The notes: generated from the sequence alone by a model not told the origin. A DNA stretch of 64,000 bases from Desulfonatronospira sp. (GCA_007125075.1 SLDX01000001.1:16539-80538), one strand, 5' to 3'. Counted from the stretch's first letter, positions 13,860-30,123 are shown. Made by a program: numbers and translations.

Positions 13860-14858
13860 TCAGATTTCCGGATGGTCCAGAGGCAGCCTGGCCGGGCCGG
13901 GACAGGCAATTCTTAAATGCTGGTAGGCCCTTGGCGTAGCTACCCTGCCTCTTGGAGTCCGCTTTAAGAATCCGCACTGAATAAGATAAGGTTCATAGAT
14001 GTCCTCCAGGGTGCGTACCTCTTCAGAGCAGGCCACCGCCACTGTCTTGATCCCTACAGGACCACCGGCGAACTGACGGATAATGCACTCCAGGATTTTT
14101 CTGTCCATCTGATCCAGGCCCAGCGGATCGACGTCCATGCGTTCAAGAGCGGCGGAAGCCATCCGGGCATCGATCTCATTTCTGCGGTCCATCACCGCAA
14201 AATCATGCACCCTGCGCAGCAGCCGGTTGGCGATCCGGGGGGTACCCCGGGAGCGTTTGCCGATTTCCAGCGCGCCTCGCCTGGATATGGCCATCCCTAG
14301 AATTCTGGCCGAACGGGAGACTATTGTCGCCAGTTCATCCGGGGAATAAAAATCCAGACGGCAGATGACTCCAAATCTGTCCCGCAGGGGGGAGGTCAAA
14401 AGACCGATTCTGGTCGTGGCCCCGACCAGGGTAAAGGGTTCCAGATCAATCTGGACGCTCCTGGCACCCGGTCCCTGACCCAGAATCAGATCCAGCTTGA
14501 AATCTTCAAGAGCAGGATAGAGGATCTCTTCAACTGATGCGGGCATGCGGTGAATCTCGTCGATAAAAAGAACATCCAGACGGTTCAGATTGGTCAGAAT
14601 CGCGGCCAGGTCGGCGCTTCTCTCCAACACCGGCCCGGAAGTGCAGACAATGCTCACTCCCAGCTCCGCGGCCAGGATGCGGGCCATGGTGGTTTTGCCC
14701 AGTCCGGGATTTCCGTAGAGAAGAGTATGATCCAGATGTTGACCGCGTTCCAGGGCTGCTCCCAGATAAACCTTGAGATTGGACCGCACATCGTTCTGAC
14801 CGATGAACTGATCCAGGCTTTGAGGCCTGACGTGCTCGTCTGGAGAATTGTTTGCCAT
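13860..14858 (-). CDS. ruvB: Holliday junction branch-migration helicase RuvB
   Basis: [40 protein letters not shown] and RTPRGR. Start set at ATG 14858; the ORF track extends it to TTG 14897. Confidence 0.95.
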
Positions 14859-15189
14859 GTTGAATACCTGGATACCATCAGTTGCACAAACGGTCAATCA
14901 GGCCAACCCCGGCGCGCCTGTCTGCAGGTACAATTTTCCGGGGCCGGACAGGCAGATGATTGAGGCTTTTTTATTGTTGCCGCAAATAAAACAGTAGTTA
15001 ATTTTAAAGTAACTCCTTTCCAGATTTTTTTCCGGTTTAAAAAAACTGAGAAGCGGTGTTCAATACTGATCCGGAAGAATGTTTGCATAAAATACACTTT
15101 GATCAATCTCCTGCAGCTATTTCCTGCAGCAGCCCGGGGCTCGCAAAGCAGGGACTGCTCAGGAATTATTTAAGGCTTTGATTGCCGCC

Positions 15190-16590
15190 ATGGATGTTTC
15201 ACTGTTTTTGTATAATCTGATCAAAGCAATGGCCATGCGCCGCACGCGCCTGCGCAGCATCAGAAGGGTTCCCCGTTCCGAAATCCTTGCCCTGCAGCGC
15301 AGGCGCCTGGCTCACCTTCTGGAGTACGCCGCAAAGACGTCTTCTTTTTACCGCCGCCGCTGGAATGCAAGGGTACCACAGCCCGAAGATCTGTCCCGGC
15401 TTGAGCCTCTGGATAAGACAACGCTTATTGAACACTATGATGAAGTCCTGAGCGTTAAAGACCTGAGCCTGGATGACACCAGAAAATGGCTGAACGGAAA
15501 ACAGGATGCTCAACCTAAAAAATATATCTTCGCGGCTACTTCCGGAACTACCGGGCAACCCCTGGTCATTCCTTACCGGCTCAATGAATGGCGCGAAGGT
15601 ATGGCCTATATTATCAGAAGTGCAGAACTGGCCATTGAAGGCACCTGGGGCAGGGGCAGCGACCCGCTGTCCCTTCTTTACCTGATGCGCAAGCGCCCCA
15701 GAATTGCCGGGGTGAGCACTTTAAACCCTATTCATGTCAGCGCCCGGCTGACCAGAAGCTTTCGCGCAGGTATTGTGCCCAGCCTGCTTCTTTCCGCAGG
15801 AACGCCTCTGGAGCAGCAGCTGGAAGAGCTGAACCGCTTCAAGCCCACTGTGCTGGGAGGCTATCCGTCGGCAATAGCTCCTCTGGTAAAGGCAGCAGAA
15901 AAAAATAAACTGCACATAAGTCCAGAGCTGATAGTCACCGGAGGAGAAACCGTATCTCAGGCCCTGCGCCGGCTGGTGCGGAAAGTCTGGGGTCTTGAGC
16001 TTTTCGATTATTACGGCCTGGCCGAAACTCTGGTCATTGCGGGAGAGTGCCGCAGGCATCAGGGCCTGCACATCTATGAGGATGCCGTAGTTCTTGAAGT
16101 GGTCGATGAACAGGGCAAGCCTCTTCCGCCGGGCAAAACTGGACACAGTGTCCTGCTGACCTGCCTGTTCAACAAAACACTGCCCGTGATCCGCTATGAT
16201 GTCGGGGACATACTCTCTGTAAACGAGGAACCCTGTGCCTGCGGAACGCCCTTAAAACGCATAGTCTCCCTGGAGGGGAGAAAAGATGAACTGCTTGTTC
16301 TGCGCAGAAAAAACGGACAGCCGGTTGAGGTGCATCCGATTGTATTTGAGTCCGCTTTGCTGGGAATGGCTGAAATACGGCAGTTTCAGATTGACGTCCT
16401 TGCCGGGGAAAAGGTGCGCATCACCATCGTCCCTCATGGACACGCCGGAGATACCGTGCCCAAAGCTTTGTCAGCCCTGTCTGAAGCTCTATCACCTCTG
16501 GGGATCGGCGAGGATGTGCTCCAGATCAGGACCGCAACAGGCATCAAGAGCAGAAGAGGTCCCACTGACAAGCTGCTCCTTCGAACCTGA
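15190..16590 (+). CDS. Phenylacetate-CoA ligase family (PaaK/CapK-like) adenylate-forming enzyme
   Basis: ATSGTTGQP P-loop, YYGLAET, PVIRYDVGD and LEGRKDE motifs. Start at ATG 15190 or TTG 15178. Confidence 0.8.
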   Translation: MDVSLFLYNLIKAMAMRRTRLRSIRRVPRSEILALQRRRLAHLLEYAAKTSSFYRRRWNARVPQPEDLSRLEPLDKTTLIEHYDEVLSVKDLSLDDTRKWLNGKQDAQPKKYIFAATSGTTGQPLVIPYRLNEWREGMAYIIRSAELAIEGTWGRGSDPLSLLYLMRKRPRIAGVSTLNPIHVSARLTRSFRAGIVPSLLLSAGTPLEQQLEELNRFKPTVLGGYPSAIAPLVKAAEKNKLHISPELIVTGGETVSQALRRLVRKVWGLELFDYYGLAETLVIAGECRRHQGLHIYEDAVVLEVVDEQGKPLPPGKTGHSVLLTCLFNKTLPVIRYDVGDILSVNEEPCACGTPLKRIVSLEGRKDELLVLRRKNGQPVEVHPIVFESALLGMAEIRQFQIDVLAGEKVRITIVPHGHAGDTVPKALSALSEALSPLGIGEDVLQIRTATGIKSRRGPTDKLLLRT

Positions 16591-18872: not shown

Positions 18873-19934
18873 TTAAAAAAGACCGTACCTGTGCAGCTTG
18901 CGATAAATGGTTCTCCTGGATACCCCAAGCAGTCTGGCTGCTTCAGCCTTCTTGCCCAGCGCAGCCTCAAGGGCGCAGACCAGTTTTTCCCGTTCAGCCG
19001 CGCCTGAGTCCTGCTGGTGCCTGGCCCCGGCATTATGCTCCAGAATTTCTTCCGGCAGGTGTTCCGGTTCGACCATTTCTTCAGAGCAAAGCAATACACC
19101 GTGCTCCAGAGCGTGTTCAAGCTGGCGCACATTTCCCGGCCAGGGATAATCAAGCAGAATGCGCATGGCCTCCGGCGAAACTCCTTGAACGGGTTTCTTA
19201 AACTTCTCAGCATAAAGCCTGCAGAAATGATCAACAAGAAGGGGTATGTCCCCGGCTCTTTCCCGCAAACGGGGCATGTGGATATTCACCACCTTGAGAC
19301 GGTAATAAAGATCTTTGCGAAAACTTCCCTCAGCCACCTTACGCACCAGATCGGCATTGGTCGCGGCCACTATGCGCACGTCAGCCTTGCTCGTTTTTGA
19401 TTCTCCAACACGTTCATACTCCTTCTCCTGAAGAAAACGCAGAAGCTTAAGCTGGATATGCTGTGAGAGATCCCCGATTTCATCGAGGAATAATGTTCCA
19501 TTCTGAGCAGCCTCCACCCTGCCGGTCCTGTCGGTATGCGCCCCGGTAAACGCTCCCCGGACATGCCCGAAAAGTTCGCTGTCCAGAAGATTTTCAACCA
19601 GAGCCAGACAGTTGACCTTGATCTTGGGTCCTTTCCTGCGCGGACTTATGGCGTGCAGAGCCTCGGCGACGAGTTCCTTGCCTGTGCCGGTCTCTCCGGT
19701 GATGAGCAAGGTGGTGTCCACCCCGGCCACCTGCTGCAGCAATGTGAACAGATTCCGCATCTGCCTGCTGCGGCCGATAAGTTTATGAAAAGAATTCATG
19801 GGACAGGAATGCTGCTGACCATAAAATTGCGGATCAGGCTTCTTTAATTTGCCCTGACTGAGCAAATCCCTCTCCGGCAAGTCCCACAGCGGAACAGTGG
19901 AGGAATCTTTCCGGATTATTGGCAAATACTGCAT
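18873..19934 (-). CDS. Sigma54-dependent enhancer-binding protein lacking an N-terminal sensory/receiver domain
   Basis: AGGAGG RBS before ATG 19934; ~45-aa leader, then GETGTGKE, GAFTGA, LFLDEIG, FRKDLYYRL, WPGNVRQL and a Fis-type HTH. Confidence 0.9.
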   Translation of the reverse strand: MQYLPIIRKDSSTVPLWDLPERDLLSQGKLKKPDPQFYGQQHSCPMNSFHKLIGRSRQMRNLFTLLQQVAGVDTTLLITGETGTGKELVAEALHAISPRRKGPKIKVNCLALVENLLDSELFGHVRGAFTGAHTDRTGRVEAAQNGTLFLDEIGDLSQHIQLKLLRFLQEKEYERVGESKTSKADVRIVAATNADLVRKVAEGSFRKDLYYRLKVVNIHMPRLRERAGDIPLLVDHFCRLYAEKFKKPVQGVSPEAMRILLDYPWPGNVRQLEHALEHGVLLCSEEMVEPEHLPEEILEHNAGARHQQDSGAAEREKLVCALEAALGKKAEAARLLGVSRRTIYRKLHRYGLF

Positions 19935-20047: not shown

Positions 20048-20063
20048 AGCAAGGCAGATGCCA
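20048..20063 (-). promoter_or_regulatory. Sigma54 (-24/-12) promoter of the input-less EBP gene
   Basis: TGGCATCTGCCTTGCT with GG-N10-GC spacing; predicted TSS ~20037. Confidence 0.75.
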
Positions 20064-20113: not shown

Positions 20114-20150
20114 TGACAAAATTTTGCGCTCGAGTTACGTTTCTTGCGCA
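20114..20150 (-). promoter_or_regulatory. Tandem upstream activator sites (UAS) for promoter 20048-20063
   Basis: Plus-strand TGACAAAATTTTGCGCT (20114-20130) and GTTACGTTTCTTGCGCA (20134-20150), matching the pair at 21743-21780. Confidence 0.6.
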
Positions 20151-20391: not shown

Positions 20392-21303
20392 CTATGAATT
20401 CTCTAGAGCCAGCTCGGGGTATACTTTCTGGAGGAAGCTCAGCTGGGAATTATTAAATCCCTTAACTATTCCTGGTTCAAGATTCAAAAAGTAATTTACG
20501 GCTTTGCCGCTTAAATTGTTATGCAGCAGCATCAGCTGAAAATTTCCCGCCTGCCTATACTCTTTGTATCTCTTGTATGTGTTGCTGGTCAGTTTATATA
20601 TGTAATCGTACAAGGGTATTTTGGATGGCAGCCTGTTGCATAAATCCATCATGCACTGCAAAGATTTATACACATTTGCACGCAGACCGACTGCCGGAGC
20701 GTTTACTTTGGAATAATAACGCTCAGGCCCGAACGCTTCAAAAGGAAAAAGCTTCGTATAGAATTTCTTATGTCTTGGATGGACCATTATACATATGTCA
20801 TCTACACCATGATACAGGCAATACCAGTAAATCGCCTGTATCTGATACAGAAATATCTTCTTGTTCCTGAACTGGCAACTGGTAGCTAGAGAAGATATTT
20901 CTACAATACTGCGTCCCCTGTCTCTGAGGATATCCAGTTCAGGTCTGTATAAAGCATCCATTGGCAGGCCGAACTCTTCAGAACTTTGAATTCCTGTCAG
21001 ATTGGAAACCGCTTTTTGATGATCACTTGCAACAGCATGAACAGTTCCTGGAAGAAGGGAATAAACTGAAAAAAGCATTCCATGATCTTTTTCTTCAGGA
21101 ACAAGACCTCTTTTCAGGTAGCTTTCATATACCAGTGAAAATATTTTTTCCAGGTCATAGGTGCAGCTTGCGTATTTGATGTCAAGACTGCTCATCTCAA
21201 TTTCATTAAAACCGGATACTCTGAGCCGTGCATCCTGATCACTGTTTAAAGTATCATATTTAATGTTGTCATATGAATTTTGCAAATCTGGTAAGTGACC
21301 CAT
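20392..21303 (-). CDS. FeeM-like N-acyl amino acid synthase (GNAT fold)
   Basis: LVYESYLKRG, FGLPMDALYRPELDILRDRGRSIVEISSLA, DDICIMVHPRHKKFY and YYSKVNAPAVGL resemble the FeeM/NAS family. GAGG RBS 8 nt before ATG 21303. AT-rich. Confidence 0.72.
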   Translation of the reverse strand: MGHLPDLQNSYDNIKYDTLNSDQDARLRVSGFNEIEMSSLDIKYASCTYDLEKIFSLVYESYLKRGLVPEEKDHGMLFSVYSLLPGTVHAVASDHQKAVSNLTGIQSSEEFGLPMDALYRPELDILRDRGRSIVEISSLATSCQFRNKKIFLYQIQAIYWYCLYHGVDDICIMVHPRHKKFYTKLFPFEAFGPERYYSKVNAPAVGLRANVYKSLQCMMDLCNRLPSKIPLYDYIYKLTSNTYKRYKEYRQAGNFQLMLLHNNLSGKAVNYFLNLEPGIVKGFNNSQLSFLQKVYPELALENS

Positions 21304-21675
21304 AATAAGCACCTCGAATATATTAGATGTTGATCATTAATACAAAATACGCCAAGAATTAATTATATAACTGTATTAATATATGCAAACATAAAACGCT
21401 ATCAAACTGGATAATAAATAATTAAATATTAATAATTGTTAAAGGTTGCTCATATTTTACAATGAATTCTTTAATTTCTGCATTAAAAATGCCTTCCAAA
21501 AATTTTATCATTGATAATCTTCAGACTTCAACGTCAGCTTGCTCAGACACTGGACTGTTGATGTAAATATTTCGCTGGTTTTTCTAATGGAAAAACATGG
21601 AAATTAACTCGAAAATGAATTAGCATGGATTGCATTGAGATTAATGTCCGCCTGAAGGCAAATCGGGAACGCTCA

Positions 21676-21691
21676 TGCAATCCAGGTGCCA
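21676..21691 (-). promoter_or_regulatory. Sigma54 (-24/-12) promoter directed at the feeM-like gene
   Basis: TGGCACCTGGATTGCA, near-consensus with GG-N10-GC; predicted TSS ~21665. Confidence 0.78.
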
Positions 21692-21742
21692 ACAATTGTG
21701 TCCAGTAAAAATAATTGCTTGCAAATTTTTGTTTGTCTGCTC

Positions 21743-21780
21743 AAAACAAATTTTGTACATTTGGTTACAAATTTTGCGCA
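21743..21780 (-). promoter_or_regulatory. Tandem upstream activator sites (UAS) for promoter 21676-21691
   Basis: AAAACAAATTTTGTACA (21743-21759) and GTTACAAATTTTGCGCA (21764-21780), 21-bp period; also contains TTTGT-N10-ACAAA. Confidence 0.62.
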
Positions 21781-22035
21781 CCGGGGTTTAAGCAAGGTAA
21801 TTATTTTTCCTGAATTTTTTTTAACCCTATAAAACCTGTTTCTTATCCTGATATATACGTCCTGAGATGTAAGCATGACGACTTAGAAACCTTCAGGCCG
21901 AATCCGGGCAGCTTGCAGGGCAGGACGCACATAATGCCTTACAGGAATAATCCTGGAACTTTTTTTAGAAGGTCATCAAGCTGCAGCTGATATTTTTTAT
22001 AAATATTTCAGAGACATAGGAGATTTATTACGCCT

Positions 22036-23505
22036 ATGAAACATACTTTTTCGCGGATGAGCATCACCGCAAGACTTTTATCCTGGTCTCTGGTCCTGAT
22101 GCTGATCTTTTACTCAATAACCATATACTTTTTTTTCAGTATAAGAGATCTGGTTTCGACCACCGACCGGATAGTGAACAAGGATCTGGAAGTAGTCGCG
22201 ATCACAGAGCAGCTGGTTGATACCACTCTTCTTTTTGTTGAAAACCGCAGAAAATACCAGATTCTGGGACGGGAACAGTATTTTGAAGCTTCTCTTAATC
22301 ACCTTAATCTGCTGGAAGAGCTCCTGGAGGATCTGCCGAGGGATTTTTCCTTTGCCGGAATCAATCCCGAGGTGCGGGAACTGGTCCTGAACATGGAAGA
22401 GTTCGGTTCATCCCCGGTACAAGATATCTCCCTGCCCAGCGAAGAGGCCCTGTCCTCGTGGATCCAGGACATAACCAACCTGCGGGCAAGCTATCTGGAA
22501 AACGTCAATGACCGGATGCAGAGCATGTATGTCCGGGGTGTTCAGGCTCAGACCTTCGGCTTTCTAGGCCTGGGCCTGGTTGCTTTTCTGGCCATTGCAG
22601 GCAGCCTGGCAATTGCTTTTTTTCTCAACAGGTCAATGCGTGAATTCAGAAAAGGTCTATTCAGACTGGCCCGCAACGAAGAATTCGAACCGGTCAGAGT
22701 AACTTCTCACGGAGAACTTGGTGAACTGGCCCGGGCATTCAACAAAATGGGCTTGAAACTCAAACGGGAGGAGGAAATGCGCTCCCAGTTCATATCCACC
22801 CTGAGCCATGAGATAAGAACGCCTTTAACCAGCATCATGGAGTCCATTAACCTGGTCCGGGACGGTGTGGCAGGCAACAGCCGTGACGCACAATCCAGGT
22901 TTCTGGACATAGCCCACAAAGAGACCCTGAGACTCTCAGAGCTTTTACAGCGCCTTATGCAGACCGCTACCATGGAATCCGGAAGCATACAGCTGGAACC
23001 GGGAGAAATCGCTATTGACAAACTCCTCTGGGATGGGGTTGACAGAATATATCCGACAGCCAGGGCTGCAGACGTGCGGGTCAAGGTAGTCAGCAGCGGT
23101 ACCGGCAGAAATGTGATGGCGGACATCAGCCATGTCCAGCAGGTTCTTTTTAATCTCCTGGGCAATGCAGTGAAATTTTCTCCTCCCGGTTCAGAAGTGA
23201 TTCTTTCATACGAACCCTGCGCCCAGGGAAATACCCTGCAGATCTGCGTTGCCGACCAGGGATCCGGAGTGTCTGAGGATGAAAAGGATCTGGTCTTCGA
23301 GCGCTACTACTGCGGAAAGAATACGAAGAACATTACTGATGGTGCAGGGCTGGGCCTGAGCATTTCCAGACAGATAATCAGAGCCCATGGAGGTGATCTG
23401 TGGCTGGAAAGCACCTCTTCGGCGGGAAGCATGTTCTGCTTCACACTTCCTCTGGCTGATGAACGAAACAAAGACAACAGGGTAGACCATGAGCATACTG
23501 TATAA
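22036..23505 (+). CDS. HAMP-domain sensor histidine kinase (GlrK/QseE-like position)
   Basis: Two TMs, helical periplasmic domain, HAMP, LSHEIRTPL, NLLGNAVKF, DQGSGV and GAGLGL. Confidence 0.9.
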   Translation: MKHTFSRMSITARLLSWSLVLMLIFYSITIYFFFSIRDLVSTTDRIVNKDLEVVAITEQLVDTTLLFVENRRKYQILGREQYFEASLNHLNLLEELLEDLPRDFSFAGINPEVRELVLNMEEFGSSPVQDISLPSEEALSSWIQDITNLRASYLENVNDRMQSMYVRGVQAQTFGFLGLGLVAFLAIAGSLAIAFFLNRSMREFRKGLFRLARNEEFEPVRVTSHGELGELARAFNKMGLKLKREEEMRSQFISTLSHEIRTPLTSIMESINLVRDGVAGNSRDAQSRFLDIAHKETLRLSELLQRLMQTATMESGSIQLEPGEIAIDKLLWDGVDRIYPTARAADVRVKVVSSGTGRNVMADISHVQQVLFNLLGNAVKFSPPGSEVILSYEPCAQGNTLQICVADQGSGVSEDEKDLVFERYYCGKNTKNITDGAGLGLSISRQIIRAHGGDLWLESTSSAGSMFCFTLPLADERNKDNRVDHEHTV

Positions 23506-24160
23506 ATTAAGATATGGATATCGATTTGCCTGGCCGGTGCTGCTGCTTATAATCCTTATGACCGGCTGTGTGGGGATCAAAAGCGATAACAGGGACACTC
23601 CGGCGACACGGCAAGGCCTGTTATTGACGGATCCGGGGGGTGAATACCTGCAGACTGCACTGGCCGGTTTTGCGGCGGGCAACTATCTGGAGGCAAGAAA
23701 GGATTTCCTGCAGGCAAAAAATAACACAGACAACCCAAAGATAAGCAGTCAGGCTGAATTCGGGATAATTCTGACCAGAATGCTCAGCGCTGAAAATCTT
23801 ACTGAGTTCAGCATCCACCAGAGAAATTTTGAACAATTTTTAGACCGGGACGATGAAAAGTATCTGCCGGACCGGAAGATGACTGCTCCATTCGTATCTG
23901 CCATGGCTGATAATCTACTCATGAAAAAGAGAATAGAATCATTGCAGGCCGATTACAGAAAAGCTCTTGATCAGCTGCACCAGGCAGAAGACGACAAGGA
24001 AGCTCTCAAGACCCGGTATAATATAAGCATGCGCAAATTAAGCGAACTGGAAGAAAAGAATCAAAGCCTTAAGAATCAGATTAAAGAGCTGGAAGAGCTC
24101 TTTGAGTTGATTGATCAACAAAAACGTCTCCTTGAACAAAATGAATCAAGACAAAGATAA
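23489..24160 (+). CDS. Lipoprotein with TPR-like helices and C-terminal coiled coil (QseG/YfhG-like position)
   Basis: Lipobox LMTG|C; overlaps both the kinase and the regulator genes; heptad-rich C-terminus. Confidence 0.75.
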   Translation: MSILYKLRYGYRFAWPVLLLIILMTGCVGIKSDNRDTPATRQGLLLTDPGGEYLQTALAGFAAGNYLEARKDFLQAKNNTDNPKISSQAEFGIILTRMLSAENLTEFSIHQRNFEQFLDRDDEKYLPDRKMTAPFVSAMADNLLMKKRIESLQADYRKALDQLHQAEDDKEALKTRYNISMRKLSELEEKNQSLKNQIKELEELFELIDQQKRLLEQNESRQR

Positions 24161-25508
24161 GAACAACGACCTGTATTCAATCCTGGTAGTCGATGATGAC
24201 GAGAGCATCCTTCAGCTCCTGGAGGCCCGTCTTTCAGCGGCCGGCTACCAGGTAACCACCGCCTGTAACGGCACACAGGCTCTGGAAATGATGGAGCTGC
24301 TGCCTTTTGATCTTGTCCTGACCGATGTCAAAATGCCCGGGCTGGACGGCCAGGAACTGCTCGCGGAAATAAAAAGGACCTGGCCGGGAATTCCGGTGAT
24401 GCTGCTCACAGCATATGGAAACATACCTGATGCGGTTAAAGCCATTCAACTTGGAGCTGCCGATTATCTGACCAAGCCCTTTGACGGACAGGAGCTTGTG
24501 TCCGGAATCAAGGACCTGCTTGCCAGGACATATCCTACTGTAAACGCGGAACTGGTTGAAGAATGCGGTATTGTCTGCGGAAAAAGCTCTTCCATGTCCA
24601 CCCTTCTCCGGATGATGCACAGAATTGCCGGCAGCGATGTCTCTATTTTGATTCAGGGAGAATCAGGAACCGGCAAGGAACTGGTGGCCAACGCCATCCA
24701 CAAATGGAGCAGCCGCAGTAAAGGACCATTCGTAGTCATCGATTGTGGATCGACTCAGACCACTCTTATTGAGAGCGAACTTTTCGGGCATGTAAAAGGC
24801 GCTTTCACTCATGCGGTCCAGGACAAGAAGGGCCTTATCGAGACCGCTCACAAAGGGACACTGTTCTTTGATGAGATCGGAAATATTTCCATGGAGATGC
24901 AGACCAGGCTTCTGCGCTTCCTGCAGGAAAGGACGCTTAGAAGAGTCGGGGATACCCGCTCAATTGAGGTTGACTGCAGAATCCTGGCCGCGACCAATGC
25001 CAACCTGAGTGAAATGGTCAGATCAGGCGCTTTCAGAGAAGACCTGTTCTACAGGCTTAAAGTAGTCAGGCTGGAAGTTCCGGCGCTGCGCCAGCGCATC
25101 GAAGACCTGCCCCTTCTGACAGATTATTTTTTGAACATCTTAAAAAGCAGGCATGAAATTGGAAATCTTGAATTAACCCCTGCTGCACTGGAAAAAATGC
25201 ATGAACATGCCTGGCCTGGAAATGTGAGAGAGCTGTTCAATGTGCTGGAGGCGGGAGCGCTTCTATCCCCGGACGGGCTGATCAAGCCTGAGGACCTTCA
25301 GCTGGAACATGCTTTTGCTGAAATTGAGCAGGCCGATGAATCCTTTTCCCTGGATGAAAATGAAAAAAAGGCGGTTATTCGAGCACTGGAAAAAACCGGC
25401 TGGGTGCAGAAGCGAGCCGCTGAAATACTGGGAATAAGCAGAAGGGCCATACATTACAAGATTCGCAAGCACAATATTGCCATTCCATCCCGGTGCTCAA
25501 GCAAATGA
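24141..25508 (+). CDS. Sigma54-dependent response regulator (REC-AAA-HTH, GlrR/NtrC family)
   Basis: ILVVDDD, LTDVKMPG, YLTKPF; GESGTGKE, GAFTHA (variant of GAFTGA), FDEIG, FREDLFYRL; HTH SRRAIHYKI. Start set at ATG 24141. Confidence 0.92.
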   Translation: MNQDKDKNNDLYSILVVDDDESILQLLEARLSAAGYQVTTACNGTQALEMMELLPFDLVLTDVKMPGLDGQELLAEIKRTWPGIPVMLLTAYGNIPDAVKAIQLGAADYLTKPFDGQELVSGIKDLLARTYPTVNAELVEECGIVCGKSSSMSTLLRMMHRIAGSDVSILIQGESGTGKELVANAIHKWSSRSKGPFVVIDCGSTQTTLIESELFGHVKGAFTHAVQDKKGLIETAHKGTLFFDEIGNISMEMQTRLLRFLQERTLRRVGDTRSIEVDCRILAATNANLSEMVRSGAFREDLFYRLKVVRLEVPALRQRIEDLPLLTDYFLNILKSRHEIGNLELTPAALEKMHEHAWPGNVRELFNVLEAGALLSPDGLIKPEDLQLEHAFAEIEQADESFSLDENEKKAVIRALEKTGWVQKRAAEILGISRRAIHYKIRKHNIAIPSRCSSK

Positions 25509-29175: not shown

Positions 29176-30123
29176 TTAAAACCAGAAGCTCAGGACGTAG
29201 CGCCCGCCCGTGAAAACCAGAATAAAGGCCAGTATCCATTTTATCAGCTTGGCCGGAACAAATTTCTGGGTTCTGGCTCCGGCGTACATGCCGATCATCC
29301 CTCCGACGCCCATAAGCACTCCAAGCATCCAGTCCGGGGCCACGGCCATGTCCGGATAAAAAGGGGCCAGAAACTGGAAAAACAGGGCCGCCACCACTGA
29401 GGTAATAAATGTCCCCATGAGGCAGGCGCCGGCAATGGTATACACAGGGAGATGAAACACCGCCACAAAAAAAGGCGCGATTATGGCTCCGCCTCCGATA
29501 CCGTACATACCCCCCACAACTCCCACGATGGCGCTGAGAATGAATATGCCCATGGTGGGCGCGGTTATGTTTTCACCGTAAAAGGAATACTCAACAGATT
29601 TCAGGCCGAACTGATTAAGCTTCACTCTGGGTAAAGGTTCACGGGTGGCTGCGTCCATTTTGTGAAACCTGCTGACCAGTTCCTGGAACCGCCTTTCAGA
29701 GGAGGCCTTGTCAGTACCGGGGGGAGGACCTTTTATCAGGGACCGGACCATGACGTAACCGATATACAGAAGGACGACTCCGGCAAAGACACGGAAGTGG
29801 GTGGGGTCGGGAAGATATTGAATTCTGAAAAAAACGCCGATGAAAACCCCGGGCACTGTTCCGGCTATGACTATCCAGGTCAGGGGCCAGACCATTCGTC
29901 CCTCTTTGATATACCTGTAAACGCCGCTGGGTATGGCCACAATGTTGAACAGATGGTTGGTCGCGCTTACGGCCGGAGTGGTGAAGCCCAGAACGCTGAC
30001 CTGAAAGGGCAGAAGAAGATTGGCTCCGGACACGCCGCCCATACTGCACATAAAAGCCACAAAAAAACCCGCCACAAACGGAATCCAGGGAGCAACCTCG
30101 ATTTCTGCAACCGGGAAATACAT
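29176..30123 (-). CDS. TSUP (TauE/SafE) family anion permease/exporter
   Basis: SMGGVSGANLLLPF, GGMYGIGGGAIIAPF and GMYAGARTQKFVP; multiple TMs; GGAGG RBS. Confidence 0.85.
   Translation of the reverse strand: MYFPVAEIEVAPWIPFVAGFFVAFMCSMGGVSGANLLLPFQVSVLGFTTPAVSATNHLFNIVAIPSGVYRYIKEGRMVWPLTWIVIAGTVPGVFIGVFFRIQYLPDPTHFRVFAGVVLLYIGYVMVRSLIKGPPPGTDKASSERRFQELVSRFHKMDAATREPLPRVKLNQFGLKSVEYSFYGENITAPTMGIFILSAIVGVVGGMYGIGGGAIIAPFFVAVFHLPVYTIAGACLMGTFITSVVAALFFQFLAPFYPDMAVAPDWMLGVLMGVGGMIGMYAGARTQKFVPAKLIKWILAFILVFTGGRYVLSFWF

Follow-up and report, generated by a model that had tools for sequence, protein, structure and literature searches.

The window considered here is a 64,000-nucleotide (nt) stretch of a Desulfonatronospira sp. 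metagenome-assembled genome (MAG; GCA_007125075.1, SLDX01000001.1:16539-80538), in which the minus-strand gene at positions 20392-21303 belongs to the FeeM family of N-acyl amino acid synthases (NAS). Judged by its sequence, it is a genuine and selectively maintained gene for a predicted fatty-acyl-amino-acid synthase. The combination found here is that of a FeeM-family synthase, a family-specific C-terminal extension, a two-component sigma-54 switch of its own and a sulfate-reducing host. The explanation we favour, with moderate confidence, is that the enzyme is switched by sigma-54 and an NtrC-type activator and would produce a plain, saturated N-acyl amino acid lipid upon induction.

According to this explanation, the GNAT-fold enzyme would take fatty acyl chains from a thioester donor and attach them to free amino acids at the alpha-amino group, with Glu135 as the predicted general base; the donor would probably be the acyl-acyl carrier protein (acyl-ACP) of fatty-acid synthesis, acyl-coenzyme A (acyl-CoA) being also possible. 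Transcription would proceed from a sigma-54 promoter approximately 360 nt upstream of the gene, turned on by an enhancer-binding protein at a conserved block of CAAAATTTG repeats. The likeliest protein for this role would be the NtrC-type regulator of the divergent operon, which may sense a cue from the periplasm or envelope. A second promoter with its own enhancer copy would, in this genus, also drive a sensor-less activator gene, and the lipid would be made on induction only.

The host, a small-genome, soda-lake-type bacterium (2.17 Mb, 49.2% GC, genome 97% complete), is supported as a sulfate reducer: dsrA scored 627 bits (cut-off 393) and adjoins dsrB, in line with the preliminary description of this locus, made from the DNA alone, which had named a sulfate reducer. 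The coordinates given there for the gene also match an open reading frame (ORF) of 303 amino acids plus stop codon. That frame opens on the minus strand at 21312 with GTG; the ATG at 21303 is the likelier start, being preceded 6 nt upstream by a GAGGTG ribosome-binding site and kept in the closest orthologue.

Family, fold and C-terminal extension

The catalytic core (residues 54-210; 20674-21144, minus strand) was delimited by a full-length match to the Pfam family PF21926, FeeM (E 2.7e-42; 144.7 bits, cut-off 27; profile positions 2-158 of 158), by alignment to the FeeM structure 2G0B and by conservation across 63 sequences. No other Pfam family, the OlsB-type PF13444 included, matched the protein at E ≤ 1, and at the same threshold neither the protein nor the whole genome had a match to the LuxI profile PF00765, nor did the whole genome contain one to the exosortase-associated acyltransferase TIGR03694. 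The best profile is therefore that of FeeM and not of another GNAT class, so that the FeeM-type motifs noticed in the preliminary description, and its assignment of the protein to N-acyl amino acid synthases rather than to LuxI or exosortase-associated enzymes, were upheld. An NCBIfam search returned only the N-terminal part of the PRK14852 model.

Structure comparisons led to the same family. The sole sequence match in the Protein Data Bank (PDB) was FeeM 2G0B (HMMER, E 1.1e-8). An AlphaFold model built with 63 homologues had a mean predicted local distance difference test score (pLDDT) of 81.7 and a predicted template modelling score (pTM) of 0.79, with residues 40-225 mostly above 90 in pLDDT. 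Its best Foldseek matches were again 2G0B chains (E 2.3e-13; target TM 0.80-0.86; root-mean-square deviation 2.6-3.2), followed by the CoA-dependent N-acyl homoserine lactone (AHL) synthase BjaI, by LasI and by ordinary GNATs.

The catalytic residues are conserved. In the HMMER alignment to 2G0B, E135 pairs with the Glu of the FeeM motif 'KKLAEV', and E135 is invariant in the 63-sequence alignment together with GLPMD (112-116), R127, P176 and Y182. The active-site Glu is Glu95 in FeeM and Glu103 in Nas354, and the E103A variant of Nas354 is inactive (PMC4897644). The His/Phe pair of FeeM has its aligned counterparts in H178 and F181, H178 being near-invariant among the homologues; His145 and Phe148 of FeeM are important for interaction with the carrier protein and phosphopantetheine, as cited in PMC11685415. 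It should be noted that FeeM literature numbering (Glu95, His145, Phe148) is offset by 1-2 from the PDB SEQRES record (E96, H147, F150) and that the residue correspondence rests on local sequence context. Past the catalytic strand, residues 136-150 hold no Gly and no Q/R-x-x-G-x-G/A loop; the CoA pyrophosphate loop is therefore missing. Together with H178 and F181, this absence would favour acyl-ACP as the donor. In comparison with the orthologue in a second Desulfonatronospira MAG (G003), the gene is under purifying selection, the ratio of nonsynonymous to synonymous divergence (dN/dS) being 0.11 overall and 0.083 in the core.

Beyond the Pfam domain, the protein continues for 93 residues as a family-specific, predicted helical C-terminal extension (residues 211-303; 20395-20673, minus strand), which the preliminary description had put at about 90 amino acids. 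The extension is conserved: nearly all of 80 homologues are 280-350 amino acids long and alignable across it, F272, L283, Q287 and Y295 are kept in at least 90% of about 60 aligned homologues of some 300 amino acids, and its dN/dS against the G003 orthologue is 0.112. It corresponds to no Pfam family and no recognisable fold, and a phmmer search with it against 1.8 billion representatives recovered only the protein itself, two short fragments and one weak match. In the full-length model, its last three short helices (266-294) were predicted confidently. Modelled alone, it was helical and not a stable domain (pLDDT 72.9, pTM 0.40), and that model found no fold match in the PDB. The extension probably packs against the GNAT core. 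Furthermore, the FeeM-like domain in the 989-amino-acid PRK14852 model, fused there to ThiF and nitroreductase domains, includes the extension (to approximately profile position 276). On this ground the extension belongs integrally to this type of enzyme, and it may also contact a downstream partner.

Sigma-54 promoters and the accompanying cassette

The synthase gene is, on sequence evidence, well supported as a sigma-54-controlled gene, as had been anticipated. An exact TGGCAC-N5-TTGCA promoter, TGGCACCTGGATTGCA (-24 GG / -12 GC; 21676-21691, minus strand), stands 372 nt before the ATG. This exact motif occurs in 4 copies in the 2.17-Mb genome, and the only two TGGCAC-N5-TTGCW sites of the 64-kb window (at most one mismatch) both flank the synthase gene on its strand. 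The promoter is identical in G003 and differs by one mismatch in a Desulfonatronovibrio MAG (G020). The genome carries rpoN (456 bits), and the synthase gene has three activator genes in its surroundings, at no more than 8 kb.

Upstream of this promoter, the three-way alignment with G003 and G020 revealed a conserved block of approximately 65 nt with three CAAAATTTG-like repeats (21716-21781, minus strand), a putative enhancer or upstream activating sequence (UAS). It includes the 11-mer GCGCAAAATTT at 21769-21779, which has 5 copies in the genome. The first promoter has this 11-mer 89 nt upstream, and the second has another copy (20119-20129) 66 nt upstream. The second promoter, TGGCATCTGCCTTGCT (TGGCAT-N5-TTGCT; 20048-20063, minus strand), precedes the gene for a sensor-less sigma-54 activator (18873-19934, minus strand; 353 amino acids), whose domain matches are AAA+ and HTH_8, with no receiver domain. 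This activator adjoins FeeM in this genus only, and its own sigma-54 promoter and the shared 11-mer suggest a cascade or feed-forward arrangement.

Sigma-54-like sites were also counted, with at most one mismatch and an antisense control, within 450 nt upstream of 95 FeeM-like genes from 78 loci (L037-L114). They were found before 10 of the 95 genes in sense orientation and before 1 of 95 in antisense, an enrichment from which sigma-54 control follows as a trait of the family. NtrC-like activator genes occur within 8 kb in 18 of the 78 loci.

On the other side of the intergenic region (21304-22035; 33% GC overall), three plus-strand genes run divergently from the synthase gene. They encode a sensor histidine kinase (22036-23505) with two transmembrane segments, a periplasmic loop of approximately 135 amino acids and HAMP, HisKA and HATPase domains; a lipoprotein (23489-24160) with the lipobox LMTG|C and a coiled-coil C-terminus; and an NtrC-type response regulator (24111-25508) whose domain matches are REC, sigma-54 AAA+ and HTH_8. 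Orthologues of kinase and regulator were found in the same divergent layout beside a FeeM-like gene in four other genomes, with identities for FeeM, kinase and regulator of 84, 91 and 92% in G003, 65, 77 and 79% in G020, 44, 50 and 61% in G030, and 41, 46 and 56% in G037; the lipoprotein shares 77% identity with its counterpart in G003, 46% in G020 and 28% in G037. In two genomes that belong to another family, the FeeM-like genes beside the kinase and regulator orthologues are of a second clade. Moreover, no kinase orthologue (E ≤ 1e-40) was found in 5 other genomes of the genus, all of which are without this FeeM clade. Given this joint presence and absence, gene and regulator come and go together, and their co-conservation points to the NtrC-type regulator as the likeliest protein to activate the FeeM promoter, on which it would act via the UAS.

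No neighbour beyond the cassette genes was co-conserved with FeeM in the neighbourhood comparison. An adenylate-forming ligase (15178-16590) and a TauE/TSUP transporter (29176-30123) were considered as pathway partners and rejected, since neither was co-conserved with FeeM at any other locus. Among the kinase-linked FeeM loci no conserved downstream partner was found; the downstream gene encodes a cNMP-binding protein in G020 (L016:9414-10160) and a KaiB-domain protein in G030 (L019:9460-9972).

An AT-rich leader of approximately 360 nt (21304-21675, minus strand) separates the start codon from the sigma-54 promoter. An Rfam scan of the leader and of both intergenic regions gave nothing at E ≤ 1, and a 29-amino-acid small ORF in the leader (21422-21511) was rejected as not conserved in G003.

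Product, origin and alternative explanations

The end product would probably be a plain, saturated N-acyl amino acid. The desaturating and exporting partners that accompany related enzymes elsewhere were not found: tblastn searches of the 97%-complete genome revealed no nitroreductase-domain, MMPL, LolA-like or DUF1302 homologue, and two ThiF-nitroreductase fusions used as queries gave only a generic ThiF/MoeB-like match (30-35% identity over 150-174 amino acids). This absence points to a plain N-acyl amino acid as the likely product, and clusters without ThiF and nitroreductase genes are reported to yield saturated N-acyl tyrosines (PMC12479983).

Several observations weigh against the explanation favoured here. 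The genome is a MAG of 149 contigs, so that absence of partner genes from it is not proof. Among characterised pathway enzymes the closest are OxzA and TyzA, which take acyl-CoA and not acyl-ACP (bioRxiv 10.1101/2020.06.11.147165; PMC10404671). The promoter is unusually distant from the start codon (372 nt), and the leader carries sigma-70-like hexamers at 21405-21362, which are consensus matches only; the sigma-54 promoter might therefore be neither the sole nor the main one. Finally, at 12 positions that are strongly conserved in the family, the synthase clade has a residue other than the consensus, e.g. W147N, N149K and N175H, and it lacks a basic N-terminal motif, ERRRTxRIKRS, that is present in most homologues, from which it follows that the substrate may differ; by these sequence signs, the substrate or activity of the clade may have shifted from the family norm.

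The preliminary description had seen in this gene an acquired enzyme, since wired into a local sigma-54 regulon, and had pointed to its low GC content. The low GC was borne out. At 40.1%, the GC content of the gene is below the genomic 49.2% (47, 32 and 41% at its first, second and third codon positions), which places it at the 2.4th percentile of 912-nt genome windows (SD 4.0%); among 1243 non-overlapping genomic ORFs of at least 200 amino acids, its GC is in the lowest 0.8% and its third-position GC (GC3, 41.1%) is the 18th lowest, the flanking genes having GC3 values of 49-62%. The codon-usage distance of the gene is only within the top 10%.

The history proposed on these grounds fared worse. 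We consider it quite unlikely that a foreign gene was recently acquired and later captured by a resident sigma-54 regulon. Besides GC and GC3 in the lowest 1-2% of the genome, such a view could draw on the synonymous divergence (dS) from G003, which stands at 0.73, double the 0.30-0.37 of the kinase, lipoprotein and regulator genes next to it (dN/dS equally low), on the patchy distribution of the gene across the genus and on the end of synteny with same-genus genomes just past ruvB. Against it, the closest relatives are the G003 protein (84% identity) and that of G020 (65%), whose isolate names begin 'CSSed16', and in a maximum-likelihood tree of 22 FeeM-like proteins of relatives the source protein groups with G003, then with G020, then with G004 and then with paralogues of G008 and G020 (support at least 99%), so that all nearest neighbours are from the same bacterial family, contrary to foreign acquisition. 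Inherited jointly with FeeM, the regulator operon has kept pace with it in divergence (G003/G020 identities of 84/65% for FeeM, 91/77% for kinase and 92/79% for regulator), promoter and UAS are conserved, and sigma-54 sites occur family-wide. Moreover, low GC3 is restricted to the source genome (41%) and G003 (40%), the G020 orthologue (54%) and the next relatives having ordinary values of 54-58%; a deficit confined to the genus argues for local drift or relaxed codon selection and not for a foreign donor, and the codon-usage distance, only in the top 10%, speaks against the view as well. Taken together, the data indicate an accessory cassette inherited within the family, in which the synthase evolves faster and has drifted towards AT in this genus; candidate causes of its approximately twofold dS are relaxed codon selection, AT-biased drift and allelic replacement. 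As for the surroundings, the gene order shared with four same-genus genomes halts directly right of ruvB (13860-15178), and the genes at 15178-40622 were not found in the same-genus contigs past ruvB, of which 4-8 kb was available (approximately 1 kb in G001).

Other alternatives concern the function. An autoinducer circuit comparable with the two-component quorum-sensing loop LuxM/LuxN-LuxO, in which a diffusible N-acyl amino acid or acyl-amide signal would act through kinase and lipoprotein on the NtrC-type regulator to give more synthase, appears unlikely, if the least so of the alternatives. The genes for synthase and sensor run divergently and are conserved or missing jointly, a pattern shared by many signalling loci; AHL synthases are the next-closest fold after FeeM, the regulator is a sigma-54 activator of the NtrC/LuxO class, and the cassette is accessory within the genus. 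AHL-like signals have also been reported from sulfate reducers without LuxI homologues (PMC5187520), and there is no PF00765 match here. The kinase, however, reaches no LuxN/LuxQ model cut-off, the gene adjacency would suit stress-induced production equally well, and lipid-export and outer-membrane genes beside FeeM-like genes in related genomes suggest surface lipids rather than signals. We would give slightly less credence still to the proposal that synthase, periplasmic kinase, lipoprotein and regulator constitute, in sulfate reducers, a quorum-sensing module complete in itself, with the N-acyl amino acid or a related acyl amide as the autoinducer that the neighbouring kinase senses; were it true, the FeeM-like family would explain the 'AHL-like' activities of LuxI-less sulfate reducers. 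It is, with about as little probability as the foreign origin, conceivable that the enzyme performs the first step of an acyl-CoA-dependent, OxzA/TyzA-like pathway to oxazolones or N-acyl-dehydro-amino acids, its partners being encoded elsewhere or on unassembled DNA. A ThiF-nitroreductase fusion lies within 8 kb of FeeM-like genes in 22 of 78 loci (40 of 78 if MMPL, LolA-like and DUF1302 genes are counted as well), and PRK14852, a natural fusion of FeeM-like, ThiF and nitroreductase domains, keeps the C-terminal extension directly ahead of its ThiF domain; yet the source protein aligns with PRK14852 across the GNAT core only, its clade is the kinase-linked one, and the generic ThiF/MoeB-like match is all that the genome offered. 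Least probable of all, and by a wide measure improbable, is a catalytically shifted or non-enzymatic remnant that uses a different acyl acceptor, be it amine, peptide or lipoprotein, or serves in structure or regulation: the 12 departures from consensus, the lost N-terminal motif and the loss of all pathway partners would agree with it, and the retained catalytic Glu, GLPMD motif and His/Phe pair, with strong purifying selection over the full length, speak against it.

Comparison with known systems and the wider family

With the FeeM and Nas synthases, the source protein shares the Pfam family, the best sequence and fold match, the active-site Glu, the GLPMD-type motif and the His/Phe pair, and in known cases a single NAS gene suffices for product formation in E. 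coli (PMC4897644). It differs from FeeM in sequence (approximately 21% identity) and in having about 50 extra N-terminal residues as well as the 93-amino-acid C-terminal extension, in the place of which Nas343 and Nas354 carry a PilZ domain. Unlike the FeeM loci, the source locus is without an adjacent ACP gene or fee-type tailoring genes, and unlike FeeM and Nas its synthase is associated with sigma-54 and two-component control in an anaerobic sulfate reducer. The LuxI-type enzymes (LasI, BjaI, TofI) are similar in their GNAT-derived fold, being the second-best structural matches (E approximately 1e-8 to 1e-6), in their acyl-thioester donor and in a catalytic Glu on the equivalent strand; they are set apart by the lack here of a PF00765 match at E ≤ 1, of any sign of S-adenosylmethionine binding and of a nearby LuxR-type receptor.

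A precedent for the regulatory link may be found in the PEP-CTERM/exosortase-associated synthases (TIGR03694) with PrsK/PrsR, where, as far as Craig et al. 2011 is relayed in PMC4897644, a long-chain NAS gene is tied to a sigma-54 two-component regulator. The source genome differs in having neither a TIGR03694 match nor an exosortase EpsH, and its regulator scored 352 bits on the PrsR model TIGR02915 (cut-off 502). The operon of kinase, lipoprotein and NtrC-type regulator with a divergent sigma-54 promoter also resembles QseE/QseG/QseF (GlrK/YfhG/GlrR). The regulator matched the GlrR and LuxO models below their cut-offs (379 vs 763 bits and 317 vs 800 bits, respectively), and in contrast to QseEGF and LuxN-LuxO the target here is an acyltransferase gene and not a small RNA. 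The product may serve as envelope lipid, surfactant or signal, the preliminary description having thought of a signal, an antimicrobial or a surfactant. With a dedicated sensor and regulator that are conserved and a clean sigma-54 promoter, the locus lends itself to experiments on the occasion and purpose of such lipid production in a bacterium.

The logic of the OxzA/OxzB, TyzABC and TrzAS systems leads to acyl-oxazolone and N-acyl-dehydro-amino-acid lipids (bioRxiv 10.1101/2020.06.11.147165; PMC10404671; PMC12856293; PMC12479983). Unlike OxzA/OxzB of Pseudoalteromonas and TyzA/B/C and TrzA/S of Mycobacterium, the source genome has no ThiF/FDO partner or transporter; further differences are that OxzA and TyzA depend on acyl-CoA and that desaturation in the known systems requires O2, the hosts here being anaerobes. 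The FeeM-like genes of related genomes frequently form tandem pairs of differing subtypes. Their neighbours, in which the Oxz, Tyz and Trz logic is combined with an export set, encode an outer-membrane protein of the DUF1302 type, a LolA-like protein, a transporter of the MMPL/RND class and an OxzB/TrzS-like fusion of ThiF and nitroreductase of approximately 680 amino acids (PRK14851, 1060 bits; also matching Rv1355c-family and Acg-type models). In the 78 FeeM loci from named genomes, taken with an 8-kb radius, at least one of these four partner genes was present in 40.

The triple fusion of FeeM-like acyltransferase, ThiF and nitroreductase represented by PRK14852, apparently natural and curated as 'hypothetical protein', provides Rosetta-stone evidence tying the acyltransferase family to oxazolone synthetases. 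The family of approximately 300-amino-acid FeeM-like proteins is widespread in Thermodesulfobacteriota, often together with an OxzB-like oxazolone synthetase and a three-part lipid-export set, an association that points to surface or secreted lipids of an unexplored kind in anaerobes; the family may also bear on which enzymes make acyl-amide signals in sulfate reducers. By way of comparison, N-acyl tyrosine producers have been reported from three phyla only (PMC12479983).

A conserved Desulfovibrionales cluster of one or two FeeM-like genes with these four partner genes was observed at L011:7914-17005 (G008) and at L012, L010, L013, L020, L023 and L024. It gives the impression of a pathway to acyl-oxazolone or dehydro-amino-acid lipids that has an export route of its own; its hosts are strict anaerobes, while the desaturases known from such pathways are O2-dependent. 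The cluster at L012 also contains a gene for a PEP-CTERM protein.

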